Under the pieces are notes generated by a model. The model did no database searches. It was not told where the DNA came from and was given only the letters and a program-made list of their open reading frames with translations. From assembly GCA_030668825.1 (NCBI GenBank), contig DAOVET010000002.1, forward strand, positions 2,571 through 66,570: 64,000 nucleotides of DNA, read 5' to 3'. This stretch comes from Candidatus Heimdallarchaeota archaeon (lineage in GTDB: Archaea > Asgardarchaeota > Heimdallarchaeia > Heimdallarchaeales > Heimdallarchaeaceae). A program made the position numbers and the translations under genes. The first letter of the stretch is position 1; the number at the start of each line of letters is the position of its first letter. Below, one piece after another: positions 7,866-25,168 of the stretch.

Positions 7866-7921
7866 AAACAATATTTATATTATGTCTAAACACTATCTAA
7901 GAGTAGACAATTATTGGAGGT
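7866..7921 (+). promoter_or_regulatory. putative promoter (TATA-like 'TTTATATTA' at 7874-7882) and strong RBS (GGAGG at 7916-7920) for the surface-protein gene
   Basis: AT-rich TATA-like element about 45 nt upstream of the ATG at 7927. GGAGG lies 6 nt before the start codon. Confidence 0.35.
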
Positions 7922-7926
7922 CTAAA

Positions 7927-10900
7927 ATGAAAAATAAGTCAATTATGGGTTCAGTATTGTTGGGTTTAACAATTGTTCTGTTAACATTGAGCGGGTCAGT
8001 GACTCAAGCTCAAATAGTATCTGAGCAAAGTACACCCCATACAAGTGCTATGAACCTTGTTTTTGTAGAAGAAATGCGAATAATCGCTGGTATAGATTCT
8101 GCAGCTGTTATAGAATTAGACCTTATAGGTGGCGTAATGCCAGCTATAGATGCTAATCCACTATTCAGCGCAGTGAAAAATTGGGCTTTTATTGCTTCAA
8201 ATCAAGCAGGTTATCAAGATTATATATTAAGAAGACCTTTCAAATCACCTGATAATGCTACACTCTTGTTAGATGTTGATTCGTCTTTAGGAGTTGATGG
8301 CAGCTTGATAAGAGCAGTTGAAATAGCCTTGCTGTTTAATGCGGCTTATGGAACAAATTTGATGTGGTCAAGAGCAGAAGCATTGCCAGGAAGTTACTTA
8401 TACTTCTTTACTGGAGGAATGCCAAGCACCATATTCAGTACATTAATTGCTGAATATCAGACAGATATATCTGGTGGTTTTACATCTTTATTAGATCCTG
8501 TTGAAGTGACTGCTTCTCCCGTAAAAGTAGCTTTTATGGGTAGAATTGGTTTGGATGGATTGATAAGTGCTGCTAGAGGATTATATTATGTTGATGTAGA
8601 TGCAATAACAGGAGCTAGTATATATACTCTATCAACACACAATATCTTTGGCGTTGATGTAGCTCCAACTCATGGACTACTAAAATTCTCTGTTCTTAAG
8701 TTCAGATTCCCCTATACTATCAATCCTTTGAGCATTACACCTAAACCAGGTAACGTTGCTCCACAGATTACAGGAAAGATGGATTGGGACTTAAATGCAC
8801 CTTGGTTCGTAGCAAAACCTGCAATGAACTATGAAGTAGTCTATAAAATTAACCACACAGCACTAACCTCTGCTCCAAGAGTATCTGTAAATATGGCATA
8901 CGATCAAGATATGCTTAACAACTTTGGCAGATTACAAATGGACTATGTAGTAACCAACACAGGAACAGAAGATGCAGTAGATATAGATATTAGTTATCCA
9001 TTAGGACCTGATTTCTTAGATTTCTTAGCCAATAAACCAGATCTCTGGGAACTCAGAAATGATGTAACAATTGATGAAGGATATTCTAACACAATTAGCG
9101 GCAATGTTCTAATAACTTTTGACGGACCTTTATTCGCTGATGAAGTAGCTTATCCTGATATTGTTTATGAACAAGAATTTCTAGTTCTTGAAGGGTGGTA
9201 TAAAAATAACACAGATGGAAGTTATGTTGATATTGATCTTTTGAACAATGCTCAAGTAATAAAGACTGATAGTGCTTTCTATAATGTTCCATTAGTAGGT
9301 GATGGAACAGTTACAACTAATGTAACATTTAGTTCTCCAAACGGATTACCTAATACTTTAGTTAATTTTGCTACAAATCTTTTATTTCCAATCGATATGC
9401 CTTCCATTATGGTGAACATTCCAAATGTAATAAATGATTACAACATAAAAATCTGGGAAGCTGTACAAGCAACTGGAGATGATCTCTTTAATAGATTATA
9501 CATAAGGCAATCAATATTTGATCCAGAACTTATGGATTTCAATTTTACTGTTAGGGAAGTAGGACGAATTGGTTCAGAATATGCTTATGATGAAGTATTT
9601 CTTAACACAACTATTTCATTGCTACATCCTGGAGAATCTGTAAACGTTAGTTGGGCAATTGATAATATCCCTTCAAGAGATGATCATTATGGTATGATGG
9701 GTCTTGCAGAAATTAATGTAGATGCAACTTATCCTGCATTGCAACTAACAACTGTAGACAAGACTGGTTACGATTTAATGCGATACTTGTTCGGTGTAGG
9801 TGACGCAATTGCACCTAATTTAGGTGATAGATTTAGTCGACCTTTGAGTTACTATGAACCTTGGACTAAAACTTGGCTGTCAACTGGAGCAAGATTTGCA
9901 TATATGGATACTGAAGGCTTTGAATACTTTGGTTTCAGTAATGGAATAAATCTTCAAATAGCAGATGATGAAGCTGTTCTTAATGTTCATGTTTCATTGG
10001 ATAACACTACTTATCTAGTTGGTGATCCAGTTACCGTGTATTATTCAATTGAAAATACTGGTAATCTGCCAGCTGAAAAAGTTGTTCTCCTCCTGTTCCA
10101 TGGAAGAATGGGTGCAGATTGGCAAATCGTTGATTCTGAGTGGTTCTGGATAGATGATATTGGAATAATTGCACCTGGTACAACATATTATGGGCAAGCT
10201 GATGTTCTAGCAAATTCATTCTTAGGAATTCACCCAGTTTATGGTGTAGCAGGATTCAAGAGTGATGTTGGGCAAACAGTTCTATCTGATGGAGTTATTA
10301 ACATTGCACCAGGATTAACCTCTATATTTGAAGGAGCTGCTGAAACTTATCAACTCGTTGCTTCAAATATGGATTGGGGATTGGTACTACCAAAGACTCA
10401 AAACAGAAGACCTGCATTTCCACAACCAGTATTAGATATAGATGTAAATGTTAGATTTATCATTCCAACAGATGCACCTTGGGAATTAGAAATTACCATA
10501 ACAATCACAAACATTGGAGATGAAAGAACACACATAACTGCTATTCAGTTCTATAACGCTACTGAAATGCAACTATTAAGAAAAATCACCACAGATGGAT
10601 ATACAGCAAATGCAACACACTTAGGTATCGGAGTAATTCTATTTGAAGGAATAACACTCTTACCTGGTGAGGACGTTACCTTTACTATGAGATGGCTTTT
10701 CTTAACGAGTCAAGGATGTTACATTCCTGGTATCATTGTAATCTATGATAGTAGATTCGCAAGCGATGTAGGAAATGACATTGTAGATACAGCTGTAGAA
10801 ACAGATGCTCCGCTAATGACTGCATTAGGTGGGTCAGCTCAAGATGAAGAAGATTGGGAAGATTATGGAGAATCAACTCAAACAGGTTCTTCAGCAGGTG

Positions 10901-11025
10901 CTGATGTATTTACTGGTGGAACACATACTCGAAGAATAGGTTCATACGATATGGTCTTATGGTCAATCAGTGCTATATTTGTTACAGCAGTTGCAACCAG
11001 CATTAGAAAGAAACTTAAAAACTAA
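7927..11025 (+). CDS. large secreted cell-surface glycoprotein (candidate S-layer protein), signal peptide plus C-terminal TM anchor
   Basis: N-terminal signal 'MKNKSIMGSVLLGLTIVLLTLSGSVTQA'. More than 15 N-x-S/T sequons. C-terminus 'MVLWSISAIFVTAVATSIRKKLKN'. Strong RBS, followed by a poly-T terminator. Confidence 0.6.
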   Translation: MKNKSIMGSVLLGLTIVLLTLSGSVTQAQIVSEQSTPHTSAMNLVFVEEMRIIAGIDSAAVIELDLIGGVMPAIDANPLFSAVKNWAFIASNQAGYQDYILRRPFKSPDNATLLLDVDSSLGVDGSLIRAVEIALLFNAAYGTNLMWSRAEALPGSYLYFFTGGMPSTIFSTLIAEYQTDISGGFTSLLDPVEVTASPVKVAFMGRIGLDGLISAARGLYYVDVDAITGASIYTLSTHNIFGVDVAPTHGLLKFSVLKFRFPYTINPLSITPKPGNVAPQITGKMDWDLNAPWFVAKPAMNYEVVYKINHTALTSAPRVSVNMAYDQDMLNNFGRLQMDYVVTNTGTEDAVDIDISYPLGPDFLDFLANKPDLWELRNDVTIDEGYSNTISGNVLITFDGPLFADEVAYPDIVYEQEFLVLEGWYKNNTDGSYVDIDLLNNAQVIKTDSAFYNVPLVGDGTVTTNVTFSSPNGLPNTLVNFATNLLFPIDMPSIMVNIPNVINDYNIKIWEAVQATGDDLFNRLYIRQSIFDPELMDFNFTVREVGRIGSEYAYDEVFLNTTISLLHPGESVNVSWAIDNIPSRDDHYGMMGLAEINVDATYPALQLTTVDKTGYDLMRYLFGVGDAIAPNLGDRFSRPLSYYEPWTKTWLSTGARFAYMDTEGFEYFGFSNGINLQIADDEAVLNVHVSLDNTTYLVGDPVTVYYSIENTGNLPAEKVVLLLFHGRMGADWQIVDSEWFWIDDIGIIAPGTTYYGQADVLANSFLGIHPVYGVAGFKSDVGQTVLSDGVINIAPGLTSIFEGAAETYQLVASNMDWGLVLPKTQNRRPAFPQPVLDIDVNVRFIIPTDAPWELEITITITNIGDERTHITAIQFYNATEMQLLRKITTDGYTANATHLGIGVILFEGITLLPGEDVTFTMRWLFLTSQGCYIPGIIVIYDSRFASDVGNDIVDTAVETDAPLMTALGGSAQDEEDWEDYGESTQTGSSAGADVFTGGTHTRRIGSYDMVLWSISAIFVTAVATSIRKKLKN

Positions 11026-11026
11026 C

Positions 11027-11060
11027 TTTTTCTTTTTTCTTTTTCTTTTATTTTTATTCT
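11027..11060 (+). terminator. poly-T archaeal terminator after the surface-protein gene
   Basis: 'CTTTTTCTTTTTTCTTTTTCTTTTATTTTTATT' immediately after the stop at 11023-11025. Confidence 0.45.
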
Positions 11061-11114
11061 GTAATAGCTTGTTTTAAATAGTGATTTGTCGCTAGATTCC
11101 AAGAGTGGAACTGA

Positions 11115-14105
11115 ATGGCAACTACAGTTGTAACCAATTCAGATTTATATGTTTTTGATAGTCTTATGTTATATAATTTTAAGATGCATAAGTCTACTGA
11201 ATTGTGTCTGTCTGAAGTTCCAATTGTTGTTATTTCAGGTGCCAATGGTAGTGGCAAAACACAGATTTTAGAAGCGCTGATTATGGCTATTGGTCATGTT
11301 CCTACTAGAGTCTCTTTGAGTACGTATAAAGAGATTATAGGCCCCTTTGATAATTACTCTCAAATCCAACTTAAACTGAATAATCCCAAACTTAGTGATA
11401 ACAGAATATTCACAACTTCCGATCCTGATCTCATACCATTTGTCGAGAAAGATTATTTTGTAATCGATGTGAAAATAAATCGTGAAGGTAATATCAGAAG
11501 AAAAGTAATTGATATGAAAGGCAAAGGAATAACCGTTACTAAAAGACAGATTCAGAATTTAATGAAGAACATAGGGATATTCGAGGATACCATGCTTAAT
11601 TTCACTGAAGAAGGATATCTTAGTTCTTTTGCTGATGGTTCTCCTCATAAGAAATTAGATAGTTTATTAGTTGCAACTGGTCTGAAACAAATATTTTCTA
11701 GCTATATTAATTCGAAGAAAAAAGTAGAAGAGAAGGAAAGGGAGCACTCGCCTTTAGTTATGCAATTAGAAAAAGAGGAGAGCAGATTAGAAAGACTTAG
11801 GGAGAACTTTGAAAGGATACAGATGAAAAGAGAACTCATACAACGATATGAGGTTCTTGAAAGAGAACTAGTCTGGTTTAATGCAATTGAAAGTCAAAAT
11901 CAATTTGAGGATGCAAACCAAAACTTAACCAGCAAAAAGAAAGAACTCGAAGAATTGGAAAAGAAACTTAGTATTTCTTCGATTGATCAAGATAATTTAC
12001 GTAAAGAGGTAAGAAAAGCAGAAGAAGAATTAGTAGATAGAAAAACTAGTATGAGGGAATTGTCAGATCAGGAAAATAGGTTGGAAGGTCAGAAGGAAGA
12101 AAAAAATCGAATAGTTCAATCTTCGAAATCTCAGATAGCAAATATCGACTTAAAACTAAGCGAATTTGAGACCATTCAAACAGATGAGGGGTTCTCACAA
12201 AAAAAGCAACTCCAGCAACAACTGGATAAAATTCATACAAGTATTTCACAATTGAACAGTGAGTTGCAATCTAGCCAAATTAATTTAAAAGACAAAGCAA
12301 CTGATGAAGACAAAATAAGACAAAGAATAAATGAAAGATCTCATCTTTATGGAGAACTGTCAGACTATGAGCGGAAATTAATAAAAGATTGTATATTGTA
12401 TAAGGAAAGAATTCAGAATTCAGATTTTAAAGATGAGATAATTGGACCTATATATGAGATCATCTCTATAAAGGAAGGTTTCGAAAATTATACAGATGTT
12501 GTAAAAGCAGCTCTTGGAAGATATCTCTTTGGCTTTGTTGCTACTACTCATGCAGCTTATAAAGAAGCAAAAAGCATTTACGATAAAATTTTCCCAACCT
12601 ATAAACCAAATTTCACAGTAGGGCGAATTTTGGAGGAAGAAAAAGGACCCAAACCTGATTACCTTACCAATCAATCATTGGAGAGTAAACCTGAAGGCAT
12701 AATTGATTTTGCAGTTAATTTAATTGAAGCTCCATTTCAAGTTAAGTTGTATTTGGTTAGGTTTGTAAGAATATTATTAGGCTCTCCATCTTTACCTCCA
12801 AATCTTCTAACAGACTATGCAAAGCAATATAAAACCAACATTTTGACAACAGATTGTAACAGTTTTTATCTTTCTCAAGAAGCATTTTCAAGACCACCAA
12901 GAAGATCCAATGTAAAACTGAGTTTAGATCTCAATAAATACCAGTCAATTGAACGTATAAGAGAACAACTACAATTAGTACAATTTGACATTGAGAAGAT
13001 TACCGAGGATAAGATCAGAATTACTGGAAGTTTAGCTGAATTAGACAACAGAAAGCGAGAGTTAGAGAACCAGTTGAAACCTTGGGAAATGGGAACTGAT
13101 GAAATTGAAAATGAATTTTTCAGGTTACAGCAAATCAAAAGTGCAGCTGAAATCTTAGTTAGAACTGAGACTGAAAACCTTTCTAAACTTGATGTGGAAA
13201 TCAACAAGATCACTCATGATATAGTAGATATTGAAAAGACTGTTACAGTACAACAAAAACAGTATGATGAAATCAGAAAGAAACTTAATCATCTAAATGA
13301 AGAGATTAAAGAACTCTCAGGAAGAAGAGACAAAAATCTAAAATTGATAAGTTTTCTTGAAATAGAAATCTTAGATTTAAAAGAAGCATATGAAAATCTG
13401 AATAAAGAAGCAAAGGAGAAAGGGGAACCTCCTGAAAGTATTCGTTCAGACAAAGAAGAAATAGCCTCCGAATATAATAAAGTTAAAGGACAATTAGAAT
13501 TATTAGAAATTACACCAGAAGTATCACAAGATAGCATCGAAAAACAAGAACAACAAGTAAGCATTTTGCAAGATGAAGTAAAAAATGCTGAAATTCATCT
13601 AAATAATCTTAAAAAAGATTTAGAAAAAAGAATTGATGAATGGGAAGGGGGTCTACATAATATTGTAGACCATCTGAACAAGATGCTGAATTTACTTCTT
13701 CAAGATGTTTTTGTAAATGTATCGATCCAAATTCGAAATTATTATGATGAGAAGTATGCAGGATTACATATTGAAGCTGAAACAAAGGGAGATAATAGAA
13801 AATATAGACAGCTTTCGGGGGGAGAAAAAACACTATTAGCTCAAGCAATCATTTTAGCTCTTCACATGATAAATCACTCACCAATTCATGCAATAGATGA
13901 ATTTACTCAAAAACTTGATAAGCGAAACAAAGCACTTGCTTTTTCCATGGCTTTAGCAACTTATAAAATCTCGAAGGAGAATAGGATAATTACTCCTCAA
14001 TTTATTCTTATAACTCCCTCTCTTGATGATGTAGAACTCTCTGAAGAGTTTACTCACAAAGTATTGATTGAGAGTAAAGTAAAACCTCATGAGGTGAAAA
14101 CATGA
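11115..14105 (+). CDS. smc: SMC (structural maintenance of chromosomes) ATPase, short-armed (996 aa)
   Basis: N-terminal Walker A 'LYNFKMHKST...VISGANGSGKTQILEALIMAIG'. Central hinge 'IIGPIYEIISIKEGFENYTDVVKAALGRYLFGFVATTHAAYKEAKSIY'. C-terminal signature 'RQLSGGEKTLLAQAIILALH...IHAIDEFTQKLD'. Long coiled coils. A canonical-looking start is also possible at 11166. Confidence 0.8.
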   Translation: MATTVVTNSDLYVFDSLMLYNFKMHKSTELCLSEVPIVVISGANGSGKTQILEALIMAIGHVPTRVSLSTYKEIIGPFDNYSQIQLKLNNPKLSDNRIFTTSDPDLIPFVEKDYFVIDVKINREGNIRRKVIDMKGKGITVTKRQIQNLMKNIGIFEDTMLNFTEEGYLSSFADGSPHKKLDSLLVATGLKQIFSSYINSKKKVEEKEREHSPLVMQLEKEESRLERLRENFERIQMKRELIQRYEVLERELVWFNAIESQNQFEDANQNLTSKKKELEELEKKLSISSIDQDNLRKEVRKAEEELVDRKTSMRELSDQENRLEGQKEEKNRIVQSSKSQIANIDLKLSEFETIQTDEGFSQKKQLQQQLDKIHTSISQLNSELQSSQINLKDKATDEDKIRQRINERSHLYGELSDYERKLIKDCILYKERIQNSDFKDEIIGPIYEIISIKEGFENYTDVVKAALGRYLFGFVATTHAAYKEAKSIYDKIFPTYKPNFTVGRILEEEKGPKPDYLTNQSLESKPEGIIDFAVNLIEAPFQVKLYLVRFVRILLGSPSLPPNLLTDYAKQYKTNILTTDCNSFYLSQEAFSRPPRRSNVKLSLDLNKYQSIERIREQLQLVQFDIEKITEDKIRITGSLAELDNRKRELENQLKPWEMGTDEIENEFFRLQQIKSAAEILVRTETENLSKLDVEINKITHDIVDIEKTVTVQQKQYDEIRKKLNHLNEEIKELSGRRDKNLKLISFLEIEILDLKEAYENLNKEAKEKGEPPESIRSDKEEIASEYNKVKGQLELLEITPEVSQDSIEKQEQQVSILQDEVKNAEIHLNNLKKDLEKRIDEWEGGLHNIVDHLNKMLNLLLQDVFVNVSIQIRNYYDEKYAGLHIEAETKGDNRKYRQLSGGEKTLLAQAIILALHMINHSPIHAIDEFTQKLDKRNKALAFSMALATYKISKENRIITPQFILITPSLDDVELSEEFTHKVLIESKVKPHEVKT

Positions 14106-14872
14106 CTGATCAAGATATTCTAGATGAAAGTTCTGATACAATTTCAGTCTACATTGAAGAAAATAGAGAATGGGTTGAGAACATATTTCAACTAGTTTTT
14201 GAGCTCAAGAGGAAATATGGTAGATCGATAAGAAAGAAAGAAATTGTGAGACTTCTAGAATCAGAGGAAGATCGGTCTAAAGTTTCTGATGCTTATCTAT
14301 ATTTACAGAACAAAAAAGAAAGCCTTCTGGATTCTGCTCTTTATGAAGATTTTATCAAAATGAATGATTTGAGAGAAAATGATTTTCTAGAACAGCTGCT
14401 TTATCCTCAAGAAAGGTTGAAAACCTTTGCAGACAAAGTAAGAAGTTTATGTGTTCCAATAACTTATTTCTCAGGAACAACTCAAACATCTTATGAAGAA
14501 CCATTAAATGCTCTAACAGAAGAAATCATTGAATTGGAATCAATTGAAAATATTGAACTTTTTGTGAAAAAATACCAGAACTTCTTTAAGAAATTAACAA
14601 CTAATTTTATAGATAAAGGTGAAATTTTGAATATTGAAAATATAATTAAAGACAAACTGATAGGTAAAAAAATCAAAAAGGTGAAGATTAACGAACTTTT
14701 GACATCTTTAGAAGCAGAGATTTTATCTAAAATGATAAGTGAGAAAAAGATTCATGTCATTTTAGAGAATGATGTACTGATTTTTCAAACTGAAATAAAG
14801 GATGAGGAATCTGATGGTGTCTCAAGTTCAGTTCTCCTCTCACCTAAGAACCCCAAAGTAGAGCGTGACTAA
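14102..14872 (+). CDS. scpA: putative kleisin ScpA (256 aa), called from operon position
   Basis: ATGA overlap with the smc stop. It is followed 2 nt later by a clear ScpB. The size fits ScpA. No strong sequence motif recognised. Confidence 0.45.
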   Translation: MTDQDILDESSDTISVYIEENREWVENIFQLVFELKRKYGRSIRKKEIVRLLESEEDRSKVSDAYLYLQNKKESLLDSALYEDFIKMNDLRENDFLEQLLYPQERLKTFADKVRSLCVPITYFSGTTQTSYEEPLNALTEEIIELESIENIELFVKKYQNFFKKLTTNFIDKGEILNIENIIKDKLIGKKIKKVKINELLTSLEAEILSKMISEKKIHVILENDVLIFQTEIKDEESDGVSSSVLLSPKNPKVERD

Positions 14873-14874
14873 TA

Positions 14875-15480
14875 ATGGAAGAAAACCATCTGGATCAATC
14901 CATTGATTCAAATGAGATTGCTGAAGAAAATAATTTCTTACCTTCTTCTATTTCAGATGAAGAAAAAGGAGAACTATTTAGAGAGTTAACTACAATTTTA
15001 TCTAGAAAATGGATAAAAGATAAAGTGACTGTTTTTGGTTGTTCTGAACTTGATTTATTATTGGCAACACGTTTTGATGTTCAAACCTTACGTGAAACAA
15101 TTGATGAATACAAAGCATTTGTTCAAATTTTAGGACTAAATGTAATTGATTATGACATGGATGGTGAAAAGTGGTACTGCTTAAGATCCTCTCATTACGC
15201 GCCTTCTGATTTACAATCTCCTGAATTAATAGTATTGGGGACTATAATTGCTTATCTTGAAAGTGATAAACAAAAACCAATAACTACAGAGAGGATTAAA
15301 GAAAAATTGGTGGTCACTGGCAGGATGAAGGAATACCTAGTTGATAATAGTTTGAGGAAATTAACAAGACTCGGATATTTCAAGAAGCAACAGAACGAAT
15401 GGGAATATAATTATCGGACCTACATAGAGTTTGGTGATGAGGAGAGAAAAAAAATTGTAGAGGAGTTCAGAAGGATTTGA
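14875..15480 (+). CDS. scpB: ScpB (segregation and condensation protein B)
   Basis: 'SPELIVLGTIIAYLESDKQKPITTERIKEKL...LVDNSLRKLTRLGYFKK...YRTYIEFG' matches the ScpB winged-helix pattern (LETLAIIAY.QPiTr.eIe.iRGV...L...GLi.....Y.TT..FLe.FGL). Confidence 0.7.
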   Translation: MEENHLDQSIDSNEIAEENNFLPSSISDEEKGELFRELTTILSRKWIKDKVTVFGCSELDLLLATRFDVQTLRETIDEYKAFVQILGLNVIDYDMDGEKWYCLRSSHYAPSDLQSPELIVLGTIIAYLESDKQKPITTERIKEKLVVTGRMKEYLVDNSLRKLTRLGYFKKQQNEWEYNYRTYIEFGDEERKKIVEEFRRI

Positions 15481-15929
15481 ATGAACAAGAAGCAATCTAT
15501 TGCTATATTCGTTGTACTTTCTGTAATCAGATGAAAACTCTAAGAGATGCTGCACTAGAAGGGTGGGAAGTTTGTGATAGATGTCAATTAGTATTTTGTA
15601 ATGAATGTAAGAAAAACACTGAAGAAGAATTCTGTCCAGGGTCTGTCTATACTACAAAACATACTGCTAGTTTTGGACTTCTTCCAATAGAACAAATTAT
15701 TGAAACAGCAAACAATATAGAGAAACAACCTAAGGAAAGCAAGTTTATTTCTAAGATATTTTTTGAAAAAGAAAAAAAGAAAATTGAAATACTCAAAAGT
15801 AACAAGAAGAAAAAGGAACCAGCTGATTTTAGTATCGTAAGATTTCGGGAAGAACAGTGGAGAAAATTTGGTACTGTTTTAGTCAAAAGGAAAGATGGTA
15901 AATTTCTAACTTGGGGTCAATTAGAATAA
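15477..15929 (+). CDS. Cys-rich zinc-finger protein (150 aa) with Lys-rich tail, last gene of the smc-scpAB operon
   Basis: TTG start overlapping the scpB stop (TTGA). Eight Cys in 'CYIRCTFC-x16-CDRC-x4-CNEC-x8-C'. Basic 'EKEKKKIEILKSNKKKKE' tail. Confidence 0.5.
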   Translation: MNEQEAIYCYIRCTFCNQMKTLRDAALEGWEVCDRCQLVFCNECKKNTEEEFCPGSVYTTKHTASFGLLPIEQIIETANNIEKQPKESKFISKIFFEKEKKKIEILKSNKKKKEPADFSIVRFREEQWRKFGTVLVKRKDGKFLTWGQLE

Positions 15930-15958
15930 CTAAAAGAAAAAAGAAAAATGGACAGGGA

Positions 15959-18862
15959 TTATATCCCTGTAATTGCTTCTGCTCGAGAGCCTAGTATTAC
16001 ATTTGTTATGAAGAGACTAGTTATTTGCAATAACATTAGAAGTACTCCTATAGCACAGAAAATTTGGAATTTTAAAGGATTCCATGCCATATACCATGTT
16101 ATTGTTCCAGCTTTTGATGAGAATATCAAAAATATCGTCGTAGAGACTTCTGATAGACAATATAAGAAGGAAACCAGCGAACCAGCGAATATATTGAGGG
16201 AAATTAATGGTATAGTAATCCTTGAAAAAGTTCTCATTCTAGAAGCACCTAAATTGATGGAAGCTTCTTCTAAAACTACATCCACTTGTTGTAAACCCGC
16301 ATACGCTGATCGTACCGTAAATGGTATTTTTCTTATTGTATAGCTCATTATTAGCAGCGTTACTGCAACCCCAATGAATGGATCTAACTTCAATCCTGCT
16401 GTGATGTTGGCCATCATTTTGTTGAACCATGAAGGGTTCCTAGATGCTATACCACTCCAATCAAAAGTTCGATAATAACCAATGGCTAAGACAATACCTG
16501 GGATTGCAATAGGTAATGTTACAAGTGCATCTAAAATCTTCTTCCCTCTAAACTCCTTTCTGGCTACAACATACGCGGCAACTGAACCAATTACGATAAT
16601 TAAAAGTGTAGCAAGGACACTATAAACTAGCGTGTTAATTATATACGGTGGTATATCATACGTTGAAGATACAAATATCACTTTATAGTTTTCACCCGTG
16701 AAAGCTAGATCTGAGGGTTTCGTACCTCCAAGCGTTTCCATAAACGACATCAGGATGACTCCTGTATGCACCAATAATGAGAATGCAAATAGTATGATCA
16801 AAAATGGATAGATGTATAATAACTTCCATTTAGCTTTAGACATCCTGTATTGTCCTGCTCTACCTTTACTTACCATTGCATATGTTCGTAAAGATACATA
16901 CTTCCGGATCGCAAAGAACCCAATAAGTGCAATAATAAGGAGTATACCTCCTAATACACAGACCTCCGGCTTAATCTCTGCAGCTCCTGCTTTCTTGTAT
17001 TCTGAAAATACATAGTAAGGTAGAAATTTACTAGCAGCTGTATCTCCCATTGCTGTGAAGATGATTGGGGTTCCTACATCTTCCATAGAAAGAATCAAAA
17101 CTAATATAGCTCCAGCCCCGATTCCTGGCATAGCCAATGGCAAAGTAACAGTGGAGAATAAACGAAATTTTCCTGCTCCAAGATTCTCTGCTGATTCTTC
17201 CATGCTTGGATCTATGTTCAAGAAGGATGAAAAAGCATTGAGATAAACTAAAGCATAGAAATGAGATGTTTGAACAAACACAATAGCAAACAGCCCTGAG
17301 AAGATTAGCTTTGTTTGGAATGCTGGAATTAAGAAGAAGTTATTTAGAAATCCGTTAGGTCCTAGAATTAACCTGAAACCCATTCCTGATATGAACGGTG
17401 GTATAATGAGAGGAGCAAGTGCTAGTAAACTTACAAGTCTTTTTCCAGGAAATTCATACCTTGCTAAAACGAAAGCCAATGCTGTACCAAGTATTACTGA
17501 AAAAATAGTAGTCAAGATTCCAAGAATAATAGTGTTAAGAACCACACCATGATCTTTTCCACTTAAAGTTATAACAGTAATTTCTATAGTATCTTCATAT
17601 TCTGCGATCAGAGGTAATTCAATTAAAACTTGAGACATATCTAGGATTTGAGTACCACCTTTTAGTTGAGAGAGGAAAATGCGGTTTGTTGTAGTATCAA
17701 TGAAAATATCTGCTGTTTTATACACAACTGTATAATAGCTGTTGATGCTTACAAGATTTGATGGATCAGTAATGTCAAAAATTCGAACACCAAGATCATT
17801 CAAAGAGAAATCAAAAGAGACAAAGTAACCATAATTGTTTACAATCTGAACATCGTATAATTTACCAACAACAGTTTCGTCATAATACTCAACAAGTGTC
17901 ATATTTAATGGGTCTGTAATGTTGAAAATACCTAAACCATCATTTCCTAAGGTGATGTAAGCTAAATCTCCAACTATATCTATATCTTGTGCCCCCATAG
18001 TCCCATTTTCTGGATCATGAATAATATGATATAACTGTGCGTCAGTATACTCTGCTAACAGTAAAGGATTTTCTGGATCAGAAATGTCAAAGATTTTAAC
18101 TCCTGTTGTGAAACCTACAACATAGACAAGGTCATTATTAATAACAATATCAAATACATCTGTATCAATGGTTACATTAGATAGAATGGTTGGATTTATT
18201 GGGTTTGAAACATCAATTATTGCGAAACCCTTTCCATTGATATCTAGAATAGCTAAATTGTTTTCAACAGCGATAAAATCAGTAGTATCTGCTATATCAT
18301 ACATATGACACATAGGTGCAAAGCTTTCTCGAACATTAGAAATGTTAAAAATTACCAATCCACCTCTACCTGCAGCAGTGTATAATAGGTCATCTTTTAC
18401 AACTAATTCATTGAAACTACTAATTTCTTCGTAATACTGCCTTATTTCCGTAGTCTCATTATGTTGCGAGACATCTAGAATCTCTATACCTTCGCTTCTT
18501 TCAGCAACAAACGCAATATTATTATCAACAGCAATTGCTTCTGCTGGACCTCCATAATCTTGTTTATCCTTTGAAAAGAAATGGGTTTGATTATCTCCTG
18601 GGAAATTGAAGAATAAAGTTTTAGTAAAGACATTAGCTATAGGGGCACCAGACCACTGACCATTGAAATAAACAGCACCAGATAGAACCGAGAATAGTGG
18701 GATTACCATCCACACAATAAAAACAAAAGACACAAGGACGATGATGAAATTTGTCGAAGGTTCTCGTAATAGTTTAACATAAAGAAAATTAATTAATGAT
18801 CTTCTCTTTTTGCCCTTTCCCTCTTCACTTGTTTTTTTACTAGAGCTAGCCATTTTATTCAA
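15959..18862 (-). CDS. ABC transporter permease (two-domain, Fe3+/thiamine-type) fused to N-terminal extracellular LVIVD-repeat beta-propeller
   Basis: N-terminal basic cytoplasmic stretch plus TM, then repeated 'G(L/F/V)xIF(N/D)ISxPxNP' LVIVD-like units (GLVIFNISNV, GFAIIDVSNPINP, GVKIFDISDPENP, GLGIFNITDPLNM, GVRIFDITDPSNL). The C-terminal approximately 540 aa hold two BPD-type permease domains with about 12 TM helices. Confidence 0.7.
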   Translation of the reverse strand: MNKMASSSKKTSEEGKGKKRRSLINFLYVKLLREPSTNFIIVLVSFVFIVWMVIPLFSVLSGAVYFNGQWSGAPIANVFTKTLFFNFPGDNQTHFFSKDKQDYGGPAEAIAVDNNIAFVAERSEGIEILDVSQHNETTEIRQYYEEISSFNELVVKDDLLYTAAGRGGLVIFNISNVRESFAPMCHMYDIADTTDFIAVENNLAILDINGKGFAIIDVSNPINPTILSNVTIDTDVFDIVINNDLVYVVGFTTGVKIFDISDPENPLLLAEYTDAQLYHIIHDPENGTMGAQDIDIVGDLAYITLGNDGLGIFNITDPLNMTLVEYYDETVVGKLYDVQIVNNYGYFVSFDFSLNDLGVRIFDITDPSNLVSINSYYTVVYKTADIFIDTTTNRIFLSQLKGGTQILDMSQVLIELPLIAEYEDTIEITVITLSGKDHGVVLNTIILGILTTIFSVILGTALAFVLARYEFPGKRLVSLLALAPLIIPPFISGMGFRLILGPNGFLNNFFLIPAFQTKLIFSGLFAIVFVQTSHFYALVYLNAFSSFLNIDPSMEESAENLGAGKFRLFSTVTLPLAMPGIGAGAILVLILSMEDVGTPIIFTAMGDTAASKFLPYYVFSEYKKAGAAEIKPEVCVLGGILLIIALIGFFAIRKYVSLRTYAMVSKGRAGQYRMSKAKWKLLYIYPFLIILFAFSLLVHTGVILMSFMETLGGTKPSDLAFTGENYKVIFVSSTYDIPPYIINTLVYSVLATLLIIVIGSVAAYVVARKEFRGKKILDALVTLPIAIPGIVLAIGYYRTFDWSGIASRNPSWFNKMMANITAGLKLDPFIGVAVTLLIMSYTIRKIPFTVRSAYAGLQQVDVVLEEASINLGASRMRTFSRITIPLISLNIFAGSLVSFLYCLSEVSTTIFLIFSSKAGTITWYMAWNPLKFQIFCAIGVLLMLLQITSLFITNVILGSRAEAITGI

Positions 18863-21200: not shown

Positions 21201-22802
21201 CTAATGAAAATTTACTTTTTTCTGTTCATATCCTATTTTATTTCCATTATCATCTTGAAATATCAATTCAATGAATGTGGGACCTAAAAAGTTTGTAGCA
21301 GGAATTTCAACCATTTTAGGTTCATGAGAGTTAGCTTCTAAGAGCATTGGATAAAGGTGATTGGTATATATTCCACCTCTCGTAAAAGATACTCTCAGAG
21401 TTCCTATTATTCCTTCCTCACTACGATTATATAGATGAACTGGGATACTGAAAGGTTTGTGAATTGGTGCTGTATCTGATGTTGTTACTCTTATTTCAAT
21501 GGTTTTATCTTGTTTGTCCAGATCCAAGCTTGGTAATGAAAACTTCCAGTTGAGGTTTTCGAACATAGTACCTTTAGTTTTCTCGTAATCTTCATTACTA
21601 GTTCTCTTCTTTCCCTCAGCTAAGCCTTTATCCCACTTGACTTCTTTGTGAGCATGTATGGATATTTCGTGTTGATTCATATCATCATAACTGTAACGCA
21701 CTTCTCTGATGTTTGAATCCCCTAAAGTATTTCCTCTCTGCAAGATTATGCAACTAGGATTTCTATACAAATATCTAAAATCGTGTTGCAAAGTAGGGTC
21801 TATTGGGAACCAAATGCCATTTGCAAAAAACTCAGCTTGTGAGTGATGAACCCAGCCTTCATATTCACTTAGGATGATACTTGTAGTTAATCTAGCGGGA
21901 ACATTACCTGCTCTACATAAACTTACGAATAGGGATGAAAATTCTGTACAATCTCCTAATTTGTTTTCTATTGCGTATGTAGCCCCATAATCTCCATCTT
22001 GGGGAACATAGACTAAATTCTCCTTTACATACTTCAAAAAAGCTAAAACTTTACTTAGTGGAGGATGGGAAAGGTATTTTTTTGCTATATTAACAATGCT
22101 TTCATTAGAGGATTCAAGAAATGGTTCGGATTTAGTATATTTCTGGTAGACCTGAGGATAAAGGGTTTCGATATTTTTTTCTTCACCTCTTAAACGTGTA
22201 ATATCGTAAGCAACCAAACGAGTAACGATATCTGCTTTATACGCAATAGTTATCTTTTCTCTAGGATTAATTTGATGAAAATAAAATCTTAGCCATCGAT
22301 TCCCATCATTATCAGTAATTAGTTTTGTTGGCTTGTGATTGCTCTCAGCGTTCAATACCTGCTGAATAGGAGAGATAGATGGCGGAATCATAACATCAAG
22401 AACAAAGTTGTTCAGAGGAAAATTATTTGGATTTTTTAGTTGAACTCCATAGAATAGAATCCAGCGATAAATCAAATGTTTATTTGTACGGATATTTACC
22501 TTTTCTCTTATTTTATAATCTCCTTCAATTTGGAGAAAATAGGTACCAGAATATAAATCAGGAGTTATTGGAAACGAGTAAATTTTCTGTAAGCCTGTTT
22601 CTTCTAATCTTACTTGATCAGAATCGATAATAGTACCAATGGGAGAAATTAGGAGAATGTGCAATTTCTGATTTTTTCTACTCCCCACAAAAGGAACAGC
22701 TTCCTCTTTACCTGAGATTAATATACTGTCCCCTATCTCTAAAGCCAAATCACTAGATAAAGGTCTTGCCTTATTCTGTTTAACATGAACAATATTAATC
22801 AT
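21201..22802 (-). CDS. transglutaminase-like superfamily protein (Cys-His-Asp core)
   Basis: 'KLGDCTEFSSLFVSLCRAGNVPARL' (catalytic Cys) and '...HHSQAEFFANGIWFPIDPT' (His/Asp). Confidence 0.6.
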   Translation of the reverse strand: MINIVHVKQNKARPLSSDLALEIGDSILISGKEEAVPFVGSRKNQKLHILLISPIGTIIDSDQVRLEETGLQKIYSFPITPDLYSGTYFLQIEGDYKIREKVNIRTNKHLIYRWILFYGVQLKNPNNFPLNNFVLDVMIPPSISPIQQVLNAESNHKPTKLITDNDGNRWLRFYFHQINPREKITIAYKADIVTRLVAYDITRLRGEEKNIETLYPQVYQKYTKSEPFLESSNESIVNIAKKYLSHPPLSKVLAFLKYVKENLVYVPQDGDYGATYAIENKLGDCTEFSSLFVSLCRAGNVPARLTTSIILSEYEGWVHHSQAEFFANGIWFPIDPTLQHDFRYLYRNPSCIILQRGNTLGDSNIREVRYSYDDMNQHEISIHAHKEVKWDKGLAEGKKRTSNEDYEKTKGTMFENLNWKFSLPSLDLDKQDKTIEIRVTTSDTAPIHKPFSIPVHLYNRSEEGIIGTLRVSFTRGGIYTNHLYPMLLEANSHEPKMVEIPATNFLGPTFIELIFQDDNGNKIGYEQKKVNFH

Positions 22803-24200: not shown

Positions 24201-24665
24201 TTGTTAAATATCAATTTCTTAAATGATAATTGTAATAAAAGAGTGAGAAACATGGTTATCATATGGGGTTACACACCTTCTGAAGCTCTACCAAATAGCA
24301 AAATCATTGGAGAAGGAGTTAACGAAATCAAGCAGCTATTTTCAGCTATACTTTTTAAAACTGGAATTAAGGGAATTTGTGTAAATCTAGAAGGAATCTC
24401 AAAAAAACCTGTTGTTAAACTAAGTTTGGTGATTGATTCTGAATCAATCTATGAAACTAGTTTTTCACCAGAAAGAGCAAGAGAATACTCATACGAATTG
24501 GATGAGACAGTTTTTCCCAAAACAAAAATAGAGGTTGTGATGTCGGTTTCCAATGGATCAGTTGAAGTTGCTATTTCTCCAATTGGAATAGGAATGGGGT
24601 TTCAAAAACAGGATGGTGAATTTGTTCCAACAAATCACTTAGCTCTAGGCGTAATTATTCTTTAA
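24201..24665 (+). CDS. hypothetical protein (154 aa)
   Basis: ORF only. An alternative start is at 24252. Confidence 0.3.
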   Translation: MLNINFLNDNCNKRVRNMVIIWGYTPSEALPNSKIIGEGVNEIKQLFSAILFKTGIKGICVNLEGISKKPVVKLSLVIDSESIYETSFSPERAREYSYELDETVFPKTKIEVVMSVSNGSVEVAISPIGIGMGFQKQDGEFVPTNHLALGVIIL

Positions 24666-25168
24666 TACTCTAGTTTCTTTCTCATTGATAGTAATTTAAC
24701 AGAATAACCCAAATTCTCGTAAAATTCCGCACCACCTTCATTCAGAAGATGCACATACAACGTTAATTCATCAGCTTGATTCTCTCTAGCAAAATCCTTC
24801 TCGAATTTTGCCATCAGTTTCGTACCTATTCCTTGTCGTCTAAAACTTTCAAATACTGCTATGTCTGAGATATGAGCTATTACTCGTTTCTTGAAGAAAC
24901 CTGAATGTTTCTTTGTATAACCAAACAAGAACCCAATTATTTCTTCTTCTACTTTAGCCACATAAACTATTTGCGTTGGCTCATGTAATGCTTTTGAGAC
25001 CATAAAACTGAAGTTTATTTTTCCATCTTTATCTAAGGTAAAATCCTCATCGATTTGTGAATGCCAATCTATAGTCTCAACCCAGATATTTACAATGTCT
25101 TTGACATCCTCTTTTTTTGCCTTTGATATTTTTACTTCTCTTAGGGCATCTGTTTTTGGGTTCATCAT
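24662..25168 (-). CDS. GNAT family N-acetyltransferase
   Basis: Acetyl-CoA binding motif 'RRQGIGTKLMAKFE'. Size is 168 aa. Confidence 0.75.
   Translation of the reverse strand: MMNPKTDALREVKISKAKKEDVKDIVNIWVETIDWHSQIDEDFTLDKDGKINFSFMVSKALHEPTQIVYVAKVEEEIIGFLFGYTKKHSGFFKKRVIAHISDIAVFESFRRQGIGTKLMAKFEKDFARENQADELTLYVHLLNEGGAEFYENLGYSVKLLSMRKKLEY

Follow-up and report, generated by a model that had tools for sequence, protein, structure and literature searches.

What kind of SMC complex is specified by a compact run of four genes in a heimdallarchaeal genome, and what does the small zinc-finger protein encoded at its end contribute? The genes lie within a 64 kb stretch of DNA from a Candidatus Heimdallarchaeota archaeon (contig DAOVET010000002.1 of assembly GCA_030668825.1), hereafter denoted the window, and all positions are given in its forward-strand numbering. 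A preliminary description had read them as a condensin-type smc–scpA–scpB operon with a short-armed SMC and an additional zinc-finger gene. The analysis presented here indicates that the operon probably encodes a prokaryotic SMC5/6-type complex with a dedicated RING-like fourth subunit, which, in lineages where genes for a ubiquitin-like (Ubl) conjugation cascade are linked, would recruit a Ubl-charged E2 enzyme (E2~Ubl). The core is of the archaeal SMC5/6-related kind that is already known; the RING-like fourth subunit, the attachment to a Ubl cascade and the presence in Planctomycetota are new.

The four-gene operon

All four genes are on the forward strand. Gene 1 (11115–14105; 996 residues) is assigned as an SMC5/6-type SMC ATPase from its match to Pfam SMC_N, its family profile and its motifs; gene 2 (14102–14872; 256 residues) is a predicted kleisin-like, or more specifically Nse4-like, protein; gene 3 (14875–15480; 201 residues) is a candidate kite-like winged-helix subunit, assigned from weak family-wide matches and gene position; and gene 4 (15477–15929; 150 residues, with a TTG start) encodes the putative RING-like binuclear zinc-finger protein. 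Successive genes are joined by an ATGA overlap (14102–14105), a 2-nucleotide (nt) gap (14873–14874) and a TTGA overlap (15477–15480), exactly the chain of reading frames, lengths and junctions that had been reported at the outset. The closest relatives by SMC sequence (94–96% identity) are Candidatus Heimdallarchaeota metagenome-assembled genomes (MAGs), which carry the database name Heimdallarchaeaceae; no database record identical to the SMC of the window was found. Compared with close relatives, the ratio of nonsynonymous to synonymous substitutions (dN/dS) is 0.04–0.16 for all four genes, with gene 4 constrained as much as the others; purifying selection acts on each of them.

The SMC subunit

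Gene 1 matches Pfam SMC_N (E = 6.6e-23) and retains intact ATPase motifs: Walker A (GANGSGKT, residues 42–49; nt 11238–11261), the signature motif (LSGGE, residues 900–904; nt 13812–13826) and Walker B (ending HAIDEF, residues 925–930; nt 13887–13904). The N-terminal arm (approximately 11706–12419), hinge (approximately 12432–12899) and C-terminal arm (approximately 12900–13649) follow the expected layout, with arms of some 230–250 residues each by a composition-based estimate, about one third shorter than those of an Smc of 1150–1200 residues. The length and short arms first described for this protein are thus confirmed; its hinge, described as recognisable, is only marginal by Pfam (SMC_hinge, E = 0.15). 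Since all of the approximately 80 SMC relatives are 930–1010 residues long, short arms characterise the family as a whole. A 1150-residue SMC (P0043), considered as a possible second SMC of the host, was set aside, as it lies in a bacterial GrpE/HrcA context and is uninformative on the host genome.

Against the SMC equivalog models, gene 1 scores 117 bits for SMC_prok_B (cut-off 567) and 81 bits for SMC_prok_A (cut-off 729), so that its description as the smc of an smc–scpA–scpB operon does not hold. A search of the PDB with the single gene 1 sequence ranked SMC5 first. When a family profile built from 13 sequences was used, the best matches were SMC6 (6e-40; 140 bits) and SMC5 (5e-26 to 1e-22; 87–94 bits), followed by SMC4 (4e-22; 81 bits) and archaeal/bacterial Smc (1e-17; 67 bits), with SMC2 (5e-16) and SMC1/3 (near 1e-13) lowest. 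By these sequence comparisons, gene 1 appears closer to SMC5/SMC6 than to SMC1–4 or canonical Smc. Residues 14–475 align collinearly with residues 83–566 of yeast Smc6, indicating that the N-terminal head and arm are essentially of Smc6 length; the short arms are the normal length for an SMC5/6-type protein and reflect no truncation.

The kleisin-like and kite-like subunits

Neither direct Pfam and NCBIfam scans nor narrow- and broad-profile PDB searches gave any recognition of gene 2, and its 42 database relatives are all annotated 'hypothetical' and have no Pfam domain. A profile in which genes 2 and 3 were concatenated retrieved relatives of gene 2 alone. It had been called ScpA from its position, yet the ScpA model (PF02616) gave no match at E ≤ 1 to the window protein, to 29 orthologues or to five consensus sequences. 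Instead, an AlphaFold2 model built on an alignment of the 42 relatives predicts an N-terminal helical domain (residues 10–116; nt 14129–14449; predicted local distance difference test score, pLDDT, 80–93), a flexible middle region of low confidence (residues 120–170) and a C-terminal winged helix (residues 172–229; nt 14615–14788; pLDDT about 80). As modelled, gene 2 has the layout of a kleisin, and the best structural match in the PDB, albeit not a significant one, is Nse4.

Gene 3 is flanked by genes 2 and 4 in every case, and for it, too, direct Pfam and NCBIfam scans were unproductive. The ScpB winged-helix signature attributed to it was not recovered: PF04079 matches neither the window protein nor any individual family member, and only the all-family consensus gives a weak match (E = 0.02; 14.9 bits against a cut-off of 27.4). 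Among 29 orthologues there are weak matches, none of which passes its threshold, to MarR-type winged helices (11/29), SMC_Nse1 (4/29; best 4.3e-4), MAGE (2/29; 1.1e-3) and MksE (1/29). Profile searches of the PDB return winged-helix proteins, with narrow alignments giving only weak hints of the same fold. All four kite-family Pfam models are represented among the weak matches, which seems unlikely to be due to chance.

Conservation of the module

Profiles of the four proteins were used to search 86 loci, and the order SMC–gene 2–gene 3–gene 4 was found wherever enough downstream sequence exists. The full module is present in all 31 loci of the Heimdall-1 group, 9/9 of a second Heimdallarchaeia group (order JABLTI01), 13/13 Hermod-type loci, both loci of a third Heimdall group, and 5/5 and 2/2 loci of Planctomycetota groups A and B, respectively (both with 68–70% G+C). 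In one group the module is rearranged such that genes 4 and 3 diverge from the SMC gene and gene 2, with all four still together. Overlaps or near-overlaps join the SMC, kleisin and kite genes both in the window and at over 60 related loci. Gene 4 is a genuine conserved component of the module, clearly retained beside the kite gene in relatives; of the two alternatives originally offered, the second, that the zinc finger is an extra accessory, is borne out. The outline of an SMC–kleisin–kite operon with a short-armed SMC was likewise right, with only the assigned family, smc–scpA–scpB, in error.

The complete modules of Planctomycetota type lie on contigs labelled Planctomycetota/Brocadiia (L050, L051, L057, L058, L061, L082 and L083) and in three metagenome loci (L095, L107 and L108). 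The G+C content of the Planctomycetota-type contigs is 67–70%, compared with 33–47% for the Asgard loci. The occurrence of the module both on these high-G+C contigs and in Asgard archaea implies that the module has passed between domains as a unit, probably into Planctomycetota, the bacterial identity being assigned by MAG labels and G+C content.

Several loci are less regular. Six divergent SMC relatives (24–28% identity; L066, L070, L074, L077, L080 and L085) have no kleisin, kite or zinc-finger partner detectable nearby; they lie on Planctomycetota or 'uncultured bacterium' contigs, that of L080 being a 5.97-Mb scaffold. In L072 (6938–10276) the SMC is split into two open reading frames (ORFs), possibly by a frameshift or assembly error, and in L068 (4156–5099) a gap or insert of approximately 0.9 kb separates the SMC and kleisin-like genes. 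Loci labelled Thorarchaeota (L029), Odinarchaeota (L044) and Bathyarchaeia (L076/L078) encode proteins near-identical to their Heimdall or Hermod group counterparts, so these MAG contigs may have been mis-binned or mislabelled. The NCBI name 'Promethearchaeota' is a generic Asgard label and does not denote Lokiarchaeia.

The zinc-finger subunit

Direct Pfam and NCBIfam scans gave nothing usable for gene 4, and a narrow-profile search of the PDB gave only weak RING hints. Its relatives are few: a profile search found 59, with neither a Pfam domain nor a name, and HMMER, run exhaustively against 1.84 billion representatives, found only 54. Across 29–37 sequences the conserved ligand positions are C13, C/H/D16, C33, C36, C/D41, C44, C53 and H62, in the spacing C-x2-C-x16-C-x2-C-x4-C-x2-C-x8-C-x8-H, and substitutions at these positions are limited to metal-binding residues. 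The eight cysteines noted at first are all present in the window protein; one of them, C9, is not conserved, and the conserved set ends with C53 and H62. The pattern is best modelled as a cross-brace, binuclear RING-like finger in which eight ligands, arranged in four pairs, would bind zinc. Gene 4 is a previously undescribed partner of the SMC module and represents a small family of predicted cross-brace zinc fingers that is new to the Asgard repertoire.

The zinc-finger domain (nt 15498–15674) is followed by a variable linker (15747–15836) and a conserved C-terminal β-domain (15837–15920). Mean pairwise identity is highest in the β-domain (0.49), lower in the zinc-finger domain (0.38) and lowest in the linker (0.19). 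What had been taken for a lysine-rich tail (residues ~96–113 of the window protein) is this internal linker, whose counterparts in other lineages are acidic; conservation within the protein peaks at the true C-terminus.

The same type of zinc-finger domain occurs at the C-terminus of proteins that are otherwise unrelated, with either a Ras/Roc-like (P0192, P0193) or a helical N-terminal region (P0189, P0190, P0195, P0196), and also in P0185; it thus behaves as a mobile domain. These longer relatives were examined for a kite–RING fusion that would mimic Nse1, and this was rejected, as their N-terminal regions are Ras/Roc-like or helical and none of the 54 relatives is a kite–zinc-finger fusion; no specific similarity of gene 4 to the Nse1 RING was detected. 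A further candidate relative of the gene 4 C-terminus (P0177), with ten matching repeats, proved to be an Ig-repeat protein and the match spurious.

A linked ubiquitin-like cascade in sister lineages

Three lineages (JABLTI01, Planctomycetota and Hermod-type) join the module to genes for a JAB peptidase, an E1, a glycine-terminated Ubl and an E2-like protein. In the first two, the genes form a co-directional array of eight, SMC–gene 2–gene 3–gene 4–JAB–E1–Ubl–E2-like, with gene 4 at the junction; examples are L039 (6983–14857) and likewise L040, L043, L065, L069, L081, L091, L093 and L110, and, for the Planctomycetota type, L050 (1861–8793), L095, L107 and L108. In Hermod-type loci (L046, L053, L059, L094 and L104) the Ubl set adjoins the SMC gene and diverges from it. 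This cluster encodes a ThiF/E1 protein (1.4e-34), a Prok-JAB peptidase (2e-8), a transglutaminase-core protein, a 108-residue protein with a weak YukD/ubiquitin-like match, a 253-residue protein and a second gene 4-like zinc-finger ORF, the last of which is homologous to the gene 4 zinc-finger domain (hhalign probability 97.5%, E = 5e-12).

The 108-residue Ubl has an invariant glycine at its exact C-terminus, followed in Hermod-type copies by a tail of one to three residues. The 253-residue E2-like family has an invariant HPR[IL]-x5-G-x-G-x-AC motif, and 40 of the 42 PDB matches of its profile are E2 enzymes, aligned via the HPN...Cys active site, with individual E-values of 0.028 or weaker. 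PADLOC recovers the JAB and E1 proteins by generic homology only, and neither the Ubl nor the E2-like protein has a Pfam or PADLOC match above threshold; the zinc-finger proteins of these loci match no PADLOC model either.

The linkage was confirmed reciprocally: when metagenomes were scanned from the E2-like family as seed, the SMC module adjoined in 11 loci with a visible flank, with two to three exceptions. Ubl–E2-like pairs with no adjoining SMC module are seen in L101 (3411–5761), which also has a transglutaminase, L111 (3403–4337) and L112 (273–1225); the last lies beside a SecA-like gene, indicating that it is bacterial.

No Ubl-cascade gene is found anywhere in the window. The window does encode a 533-residue transglutaminase-core protein (21201–22802, reverse strand; Pfam Transglut_core, 5e-17) that is homologous to the copy in the Hermod-type cluster (E = 4e-27). 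Heimdall, Sif and Hermod-type loci repeatedly have such a protein close to the module, and others lie beside Ubl–E2-like pairs (L030, 12313–13938; L002, 17500–18972; L073, 1046–2533; L046, 4128–5003; L101, 4583–5761); these proteins may represent a further component of the system, for example a protease or isopeptidase.

Proposed mechanism and alternative readings

If the complex is built like other SMC complexes, its one SMC would form a homodimer with arms of approximately 35 nm. The Nse4-like kleisin (gene 2) would bridge the two ATPase heads, using the helical domain at its N-terminus and the winged helix at its C-terminus, with the kite-type winged-helix protein (gene 3) bound to the flexible middle of the kleisin. 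The C-terminal β-domain of gene 4 is most likely its anchor to the complex, and recruitment of a partner is the most likely task of the RING-like domain, which is carried on a variable and flexible linker. Where the Ubl genes are linked, that partner would be the charged E2~Ubl, such that an SMC complex engaged on DNA could direct ubiquitin-like modification, by the same logic as with Nse1 (RING) and Nse2/Mms21 (SP-RING) in eukaryotic SMC5/6. In the lineage of the window, which has no adjoining Ubl genes, gene 4 may work with enzymes encoded elsewhere or be purely structural. We infer the E3-like adaptor role of gene 4, and all of the physical contacts, from gene context and predicted folds.

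A purely structural, or DNA- or protein-binding, zinc finger with no Ubl role, beside a cascade that is a separate neighbour with another target, is a less probable account of gene 4. In the window and in all Heimdall-1 loci gene 4 is strongly constrained even though no Ubl genes adjoin; the residues by which canonical RINGs contact E2 are not apparent; the same domain is also joined to modules as unrelated as Ras/Roc-like GTPases and helical proteins; and cross-brace fingers such as ZZ, FYVE and PHD are often ligand binders rather than E3s. Against this account, gene 4 lies exactly between the kite gene and the JAB–E1–Ubl–E2-like genes in two lineages, one archaeal and one bacterial, a paralogous zinc-finger domain occurs inside the Ubl cluster of a third, and the linkage of the E2-like family to the SMC module is reciprocal.

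A second alternative concerns biological role and is compatible with an SMC5/6-type identity. Eukaryotic SMC5/6 restricts extrachromosomal viral DNA, and the module could be a horizontally spread anti-plasmid or anti-virus system with a Wadjet- or Lamassu-like SMC as DNA sensor and a Ubl effector arm resembling Bil or type II CBASS. The inter-domain transfer implied by whole modules in both Planctomycetota contigs and Asgard archaea would suit such a system, as would the matches of the JAB and E1 proteins to PADLOC models of the CBASS Cap3/Cap2 type and the weak matches of gene 1, by generic similarity, to LmuB (1e-13) and JetC (1e-6). Characterised bacterial Ubl/E1/E2/JAB operons, moreover, act or have been proposed to act in antiphage immunity (PMC11601596). 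Even so, we consider a defence role unlikely. Genes 2–4, the Ubl, the E2-like protein and the transglutaminase match no PADLOC model, and the flanks hold housekeeping or transport genes and no nuclease or other effector. The Heimdallarchaeaceae operon keeps its chromosomal neighbours across 42–100% SMC identity, as expected of a core gene passed on vertically and not of a defence island, and published tables give this type as the only SMC in genomes of the order UBA460. Identity as Wadjet or Lamassu proper was rejected on the PADLOC results and gene content.

The original reading, a canonical Smc–ScpA–ScpB condensin with merely shortened arms, can draw on the matching gene order, a TIGR02168 match (E = 7.8e-34) that comes mostly from the coiled-coil region and the faint ScpB match of the gene 3 consensus, but with equivalog scores far below cut-off, ScpA and ScpB models that fail on every individual protein searched, and SMC6 and SMC5 clearly the closest solved relatives, it is effectively refuted and highly improbable.

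Comparison with known systems

Archaeal 'SMC5/6-related' SMCs have been reported in TACK and Asgard lineages, where their operons also encode a kleisin related to Nse4 and a kite related to Nse1/3 (Yoshinaga and Inagaki 2021, PMC8665677; van Hooff et al., bioRxiv 10.1101/2024.01.07.573240). The present module resembles these, with one SMC nearer to SMC5/6 followed by a predicted divergent kleisin and a candidate kite of approximately 200 residues, in Asgard lineages. As published, however, those operons have three subunits, and a fourth zinc-finger gene, a Ubl/E1/E2/JAB cascade and Planctomycetota copies go unmentioned; van Hooff et al. describe the Nse1 RING as absent from archaeal kites and as a eukaryotic innovation, with no mention of zinc-finger or Ubl genes.

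The table of the same authors lists Heimdallarchaeia genomes of the order UBA460 that have a single SMC5/6-related SMC, with a single Nse1/3-related kite in one of them and a recorded kleisin, canonical SMC or ScpB in neither, from SMC and kleisin data sets that the authors caution were down-sampled (bioRxiv 10.1101/2024.01.07.573240). These entries fit the present locus, the match being by type and not by accession or tree. No Nse4-related kleisin was detected in those genomes, whereas gene 2 is present here; gene 2 would be the kleisin that published surveys missed in Heimdallarchaeia.

The eukaryotic SMC5/6 holo-complex comprises Smc5, Smc6, the Nse4 kleisin, the Nse1 and Nse3 kites and the SUMO ligase Nse2/Mms21. 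In place of the Smc5/Smc6 heterodimer and two kites, the operon has one SMC gene, presumed to give a homodimer, and one kite-like gene. The RING of Nse1 is fused to a kite, whereas here the zinc finger is a separate 150-residue protein with a β-domain of its own, and is not built like Nse2 either; Nse5/6 have no counterpart. Relative to Smc–ScpAB, subunit order and architecture are shared, but the equivalog, ScpA and ScpB models fail and the arms are about one third shorter.

Small RING proteins encoded beside a Ub–E1–E2 set are known from archaea, where the RING E3 is required in vitro for ubiquitylation of Rad50 (PMC5654768). The Ubl sets of the related loci share with the srfp operons of Caldiarchaeum and Asgard archaea (PMC5654768) and with the Bil, Bub and CBASS Cap2/3 operons (PMC11601596, PMC10557695) an E1 (ThiF), a JAB protein, a glycine-terminated Ubl, an E2-like protein with an HP...C motif and a small cross-brace zinc finger. 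In contrast to the known operons, the cascade in these loci is joined to an SMC–kleisin–kite module. There are also differences in the parts: the ligand pattern of gene 4 is not of the RING-H2 kind, and, unlike in Bub, the E2-like protein of the related loci keeps a catalytic cysteine. Literature searches on SMC proteins with RING, Ubl, JAB or ThiF brought up no account of this linkage, though an earlier one in Burroughs et al. 2011 (prokaryotic RING fingers) is possible.

Of the SMC complexes, eukaryotic SMC5/6 is the one understood least, and it is unusual in having ubiquitin and SUMO ligase subunits, which the most recent evolutionary study treats as eukaryotic additions. The placement of gene 4 between the SMC genes and the Ubl cascade in sister lineages suggests that the link between SMC5/6 and ubiquitin/SUMO ligases may predate eukaryotes. 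It is conceivable, though we put this forward tentatively, that SMC5/6-type complexes were already physically coupled to Ubl conjugation through a dedicated RING-like subunit before eukaryotes arose, and that gene 4 is a functional, possibly evolutionary, antecedent of the Nse1 RING and the Nse2 SP-RING. A compact prokaryotic version, in an array of up to eight genes, could open the question of ligase attachment to reconstitution free of eukaryotic complexity.

Flanking regions

The G+C content of the window is 32–36%, and no tRNA or Rfam match was found in it. Upstream of the operon, an oligo-T tract (11027–11058, forward strand), read from the sequence and located 3′ of the stop codon of the preceding gene (11023–11025), is a likely archaeal terminator that would set the operon apart from that gene. 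A TATA-like box, TTTTAAATA (11072–11080, forward strand), likewise read from the sequence, lies 34 nt 5′ of the gene 1 ATG and is the putative operon promoter, a role deduced from what is generally known of promoters in archaea. On the downstream side, 29 nt separate the end of gene 4 from an ABC-permease gene that converges on it. Together, the upstream elements and the convergent gene suggest a self-contained four-gene operon.

The preceding gene (7882–11025, forward strand) encodes a 1047-residue protein, and every Heimdall-1 locus has this gene directly 5′ of the SMC; the protein has an N-terminal signal-like segment and a C-terminal hydrophobic segment, with faint CARDB/CLIPPER matches in orthologues. 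GalT and GH57 genes lie farther upstream in conserved synteny. On the other side, a 131-residue ORF (15948–16343, forward strand) is antisense to the 3′ end of the 967-residue ABC-permease gene (15959–18862, reverse strand) and is most likely spurious. Approximately 9 kb from the operon, a GNAT acetyltransferase (24662–25168, reverse strand) gives a weak ESCO1/2-type match (E = 0.0014) and is probably a generic member of the GNAT family.

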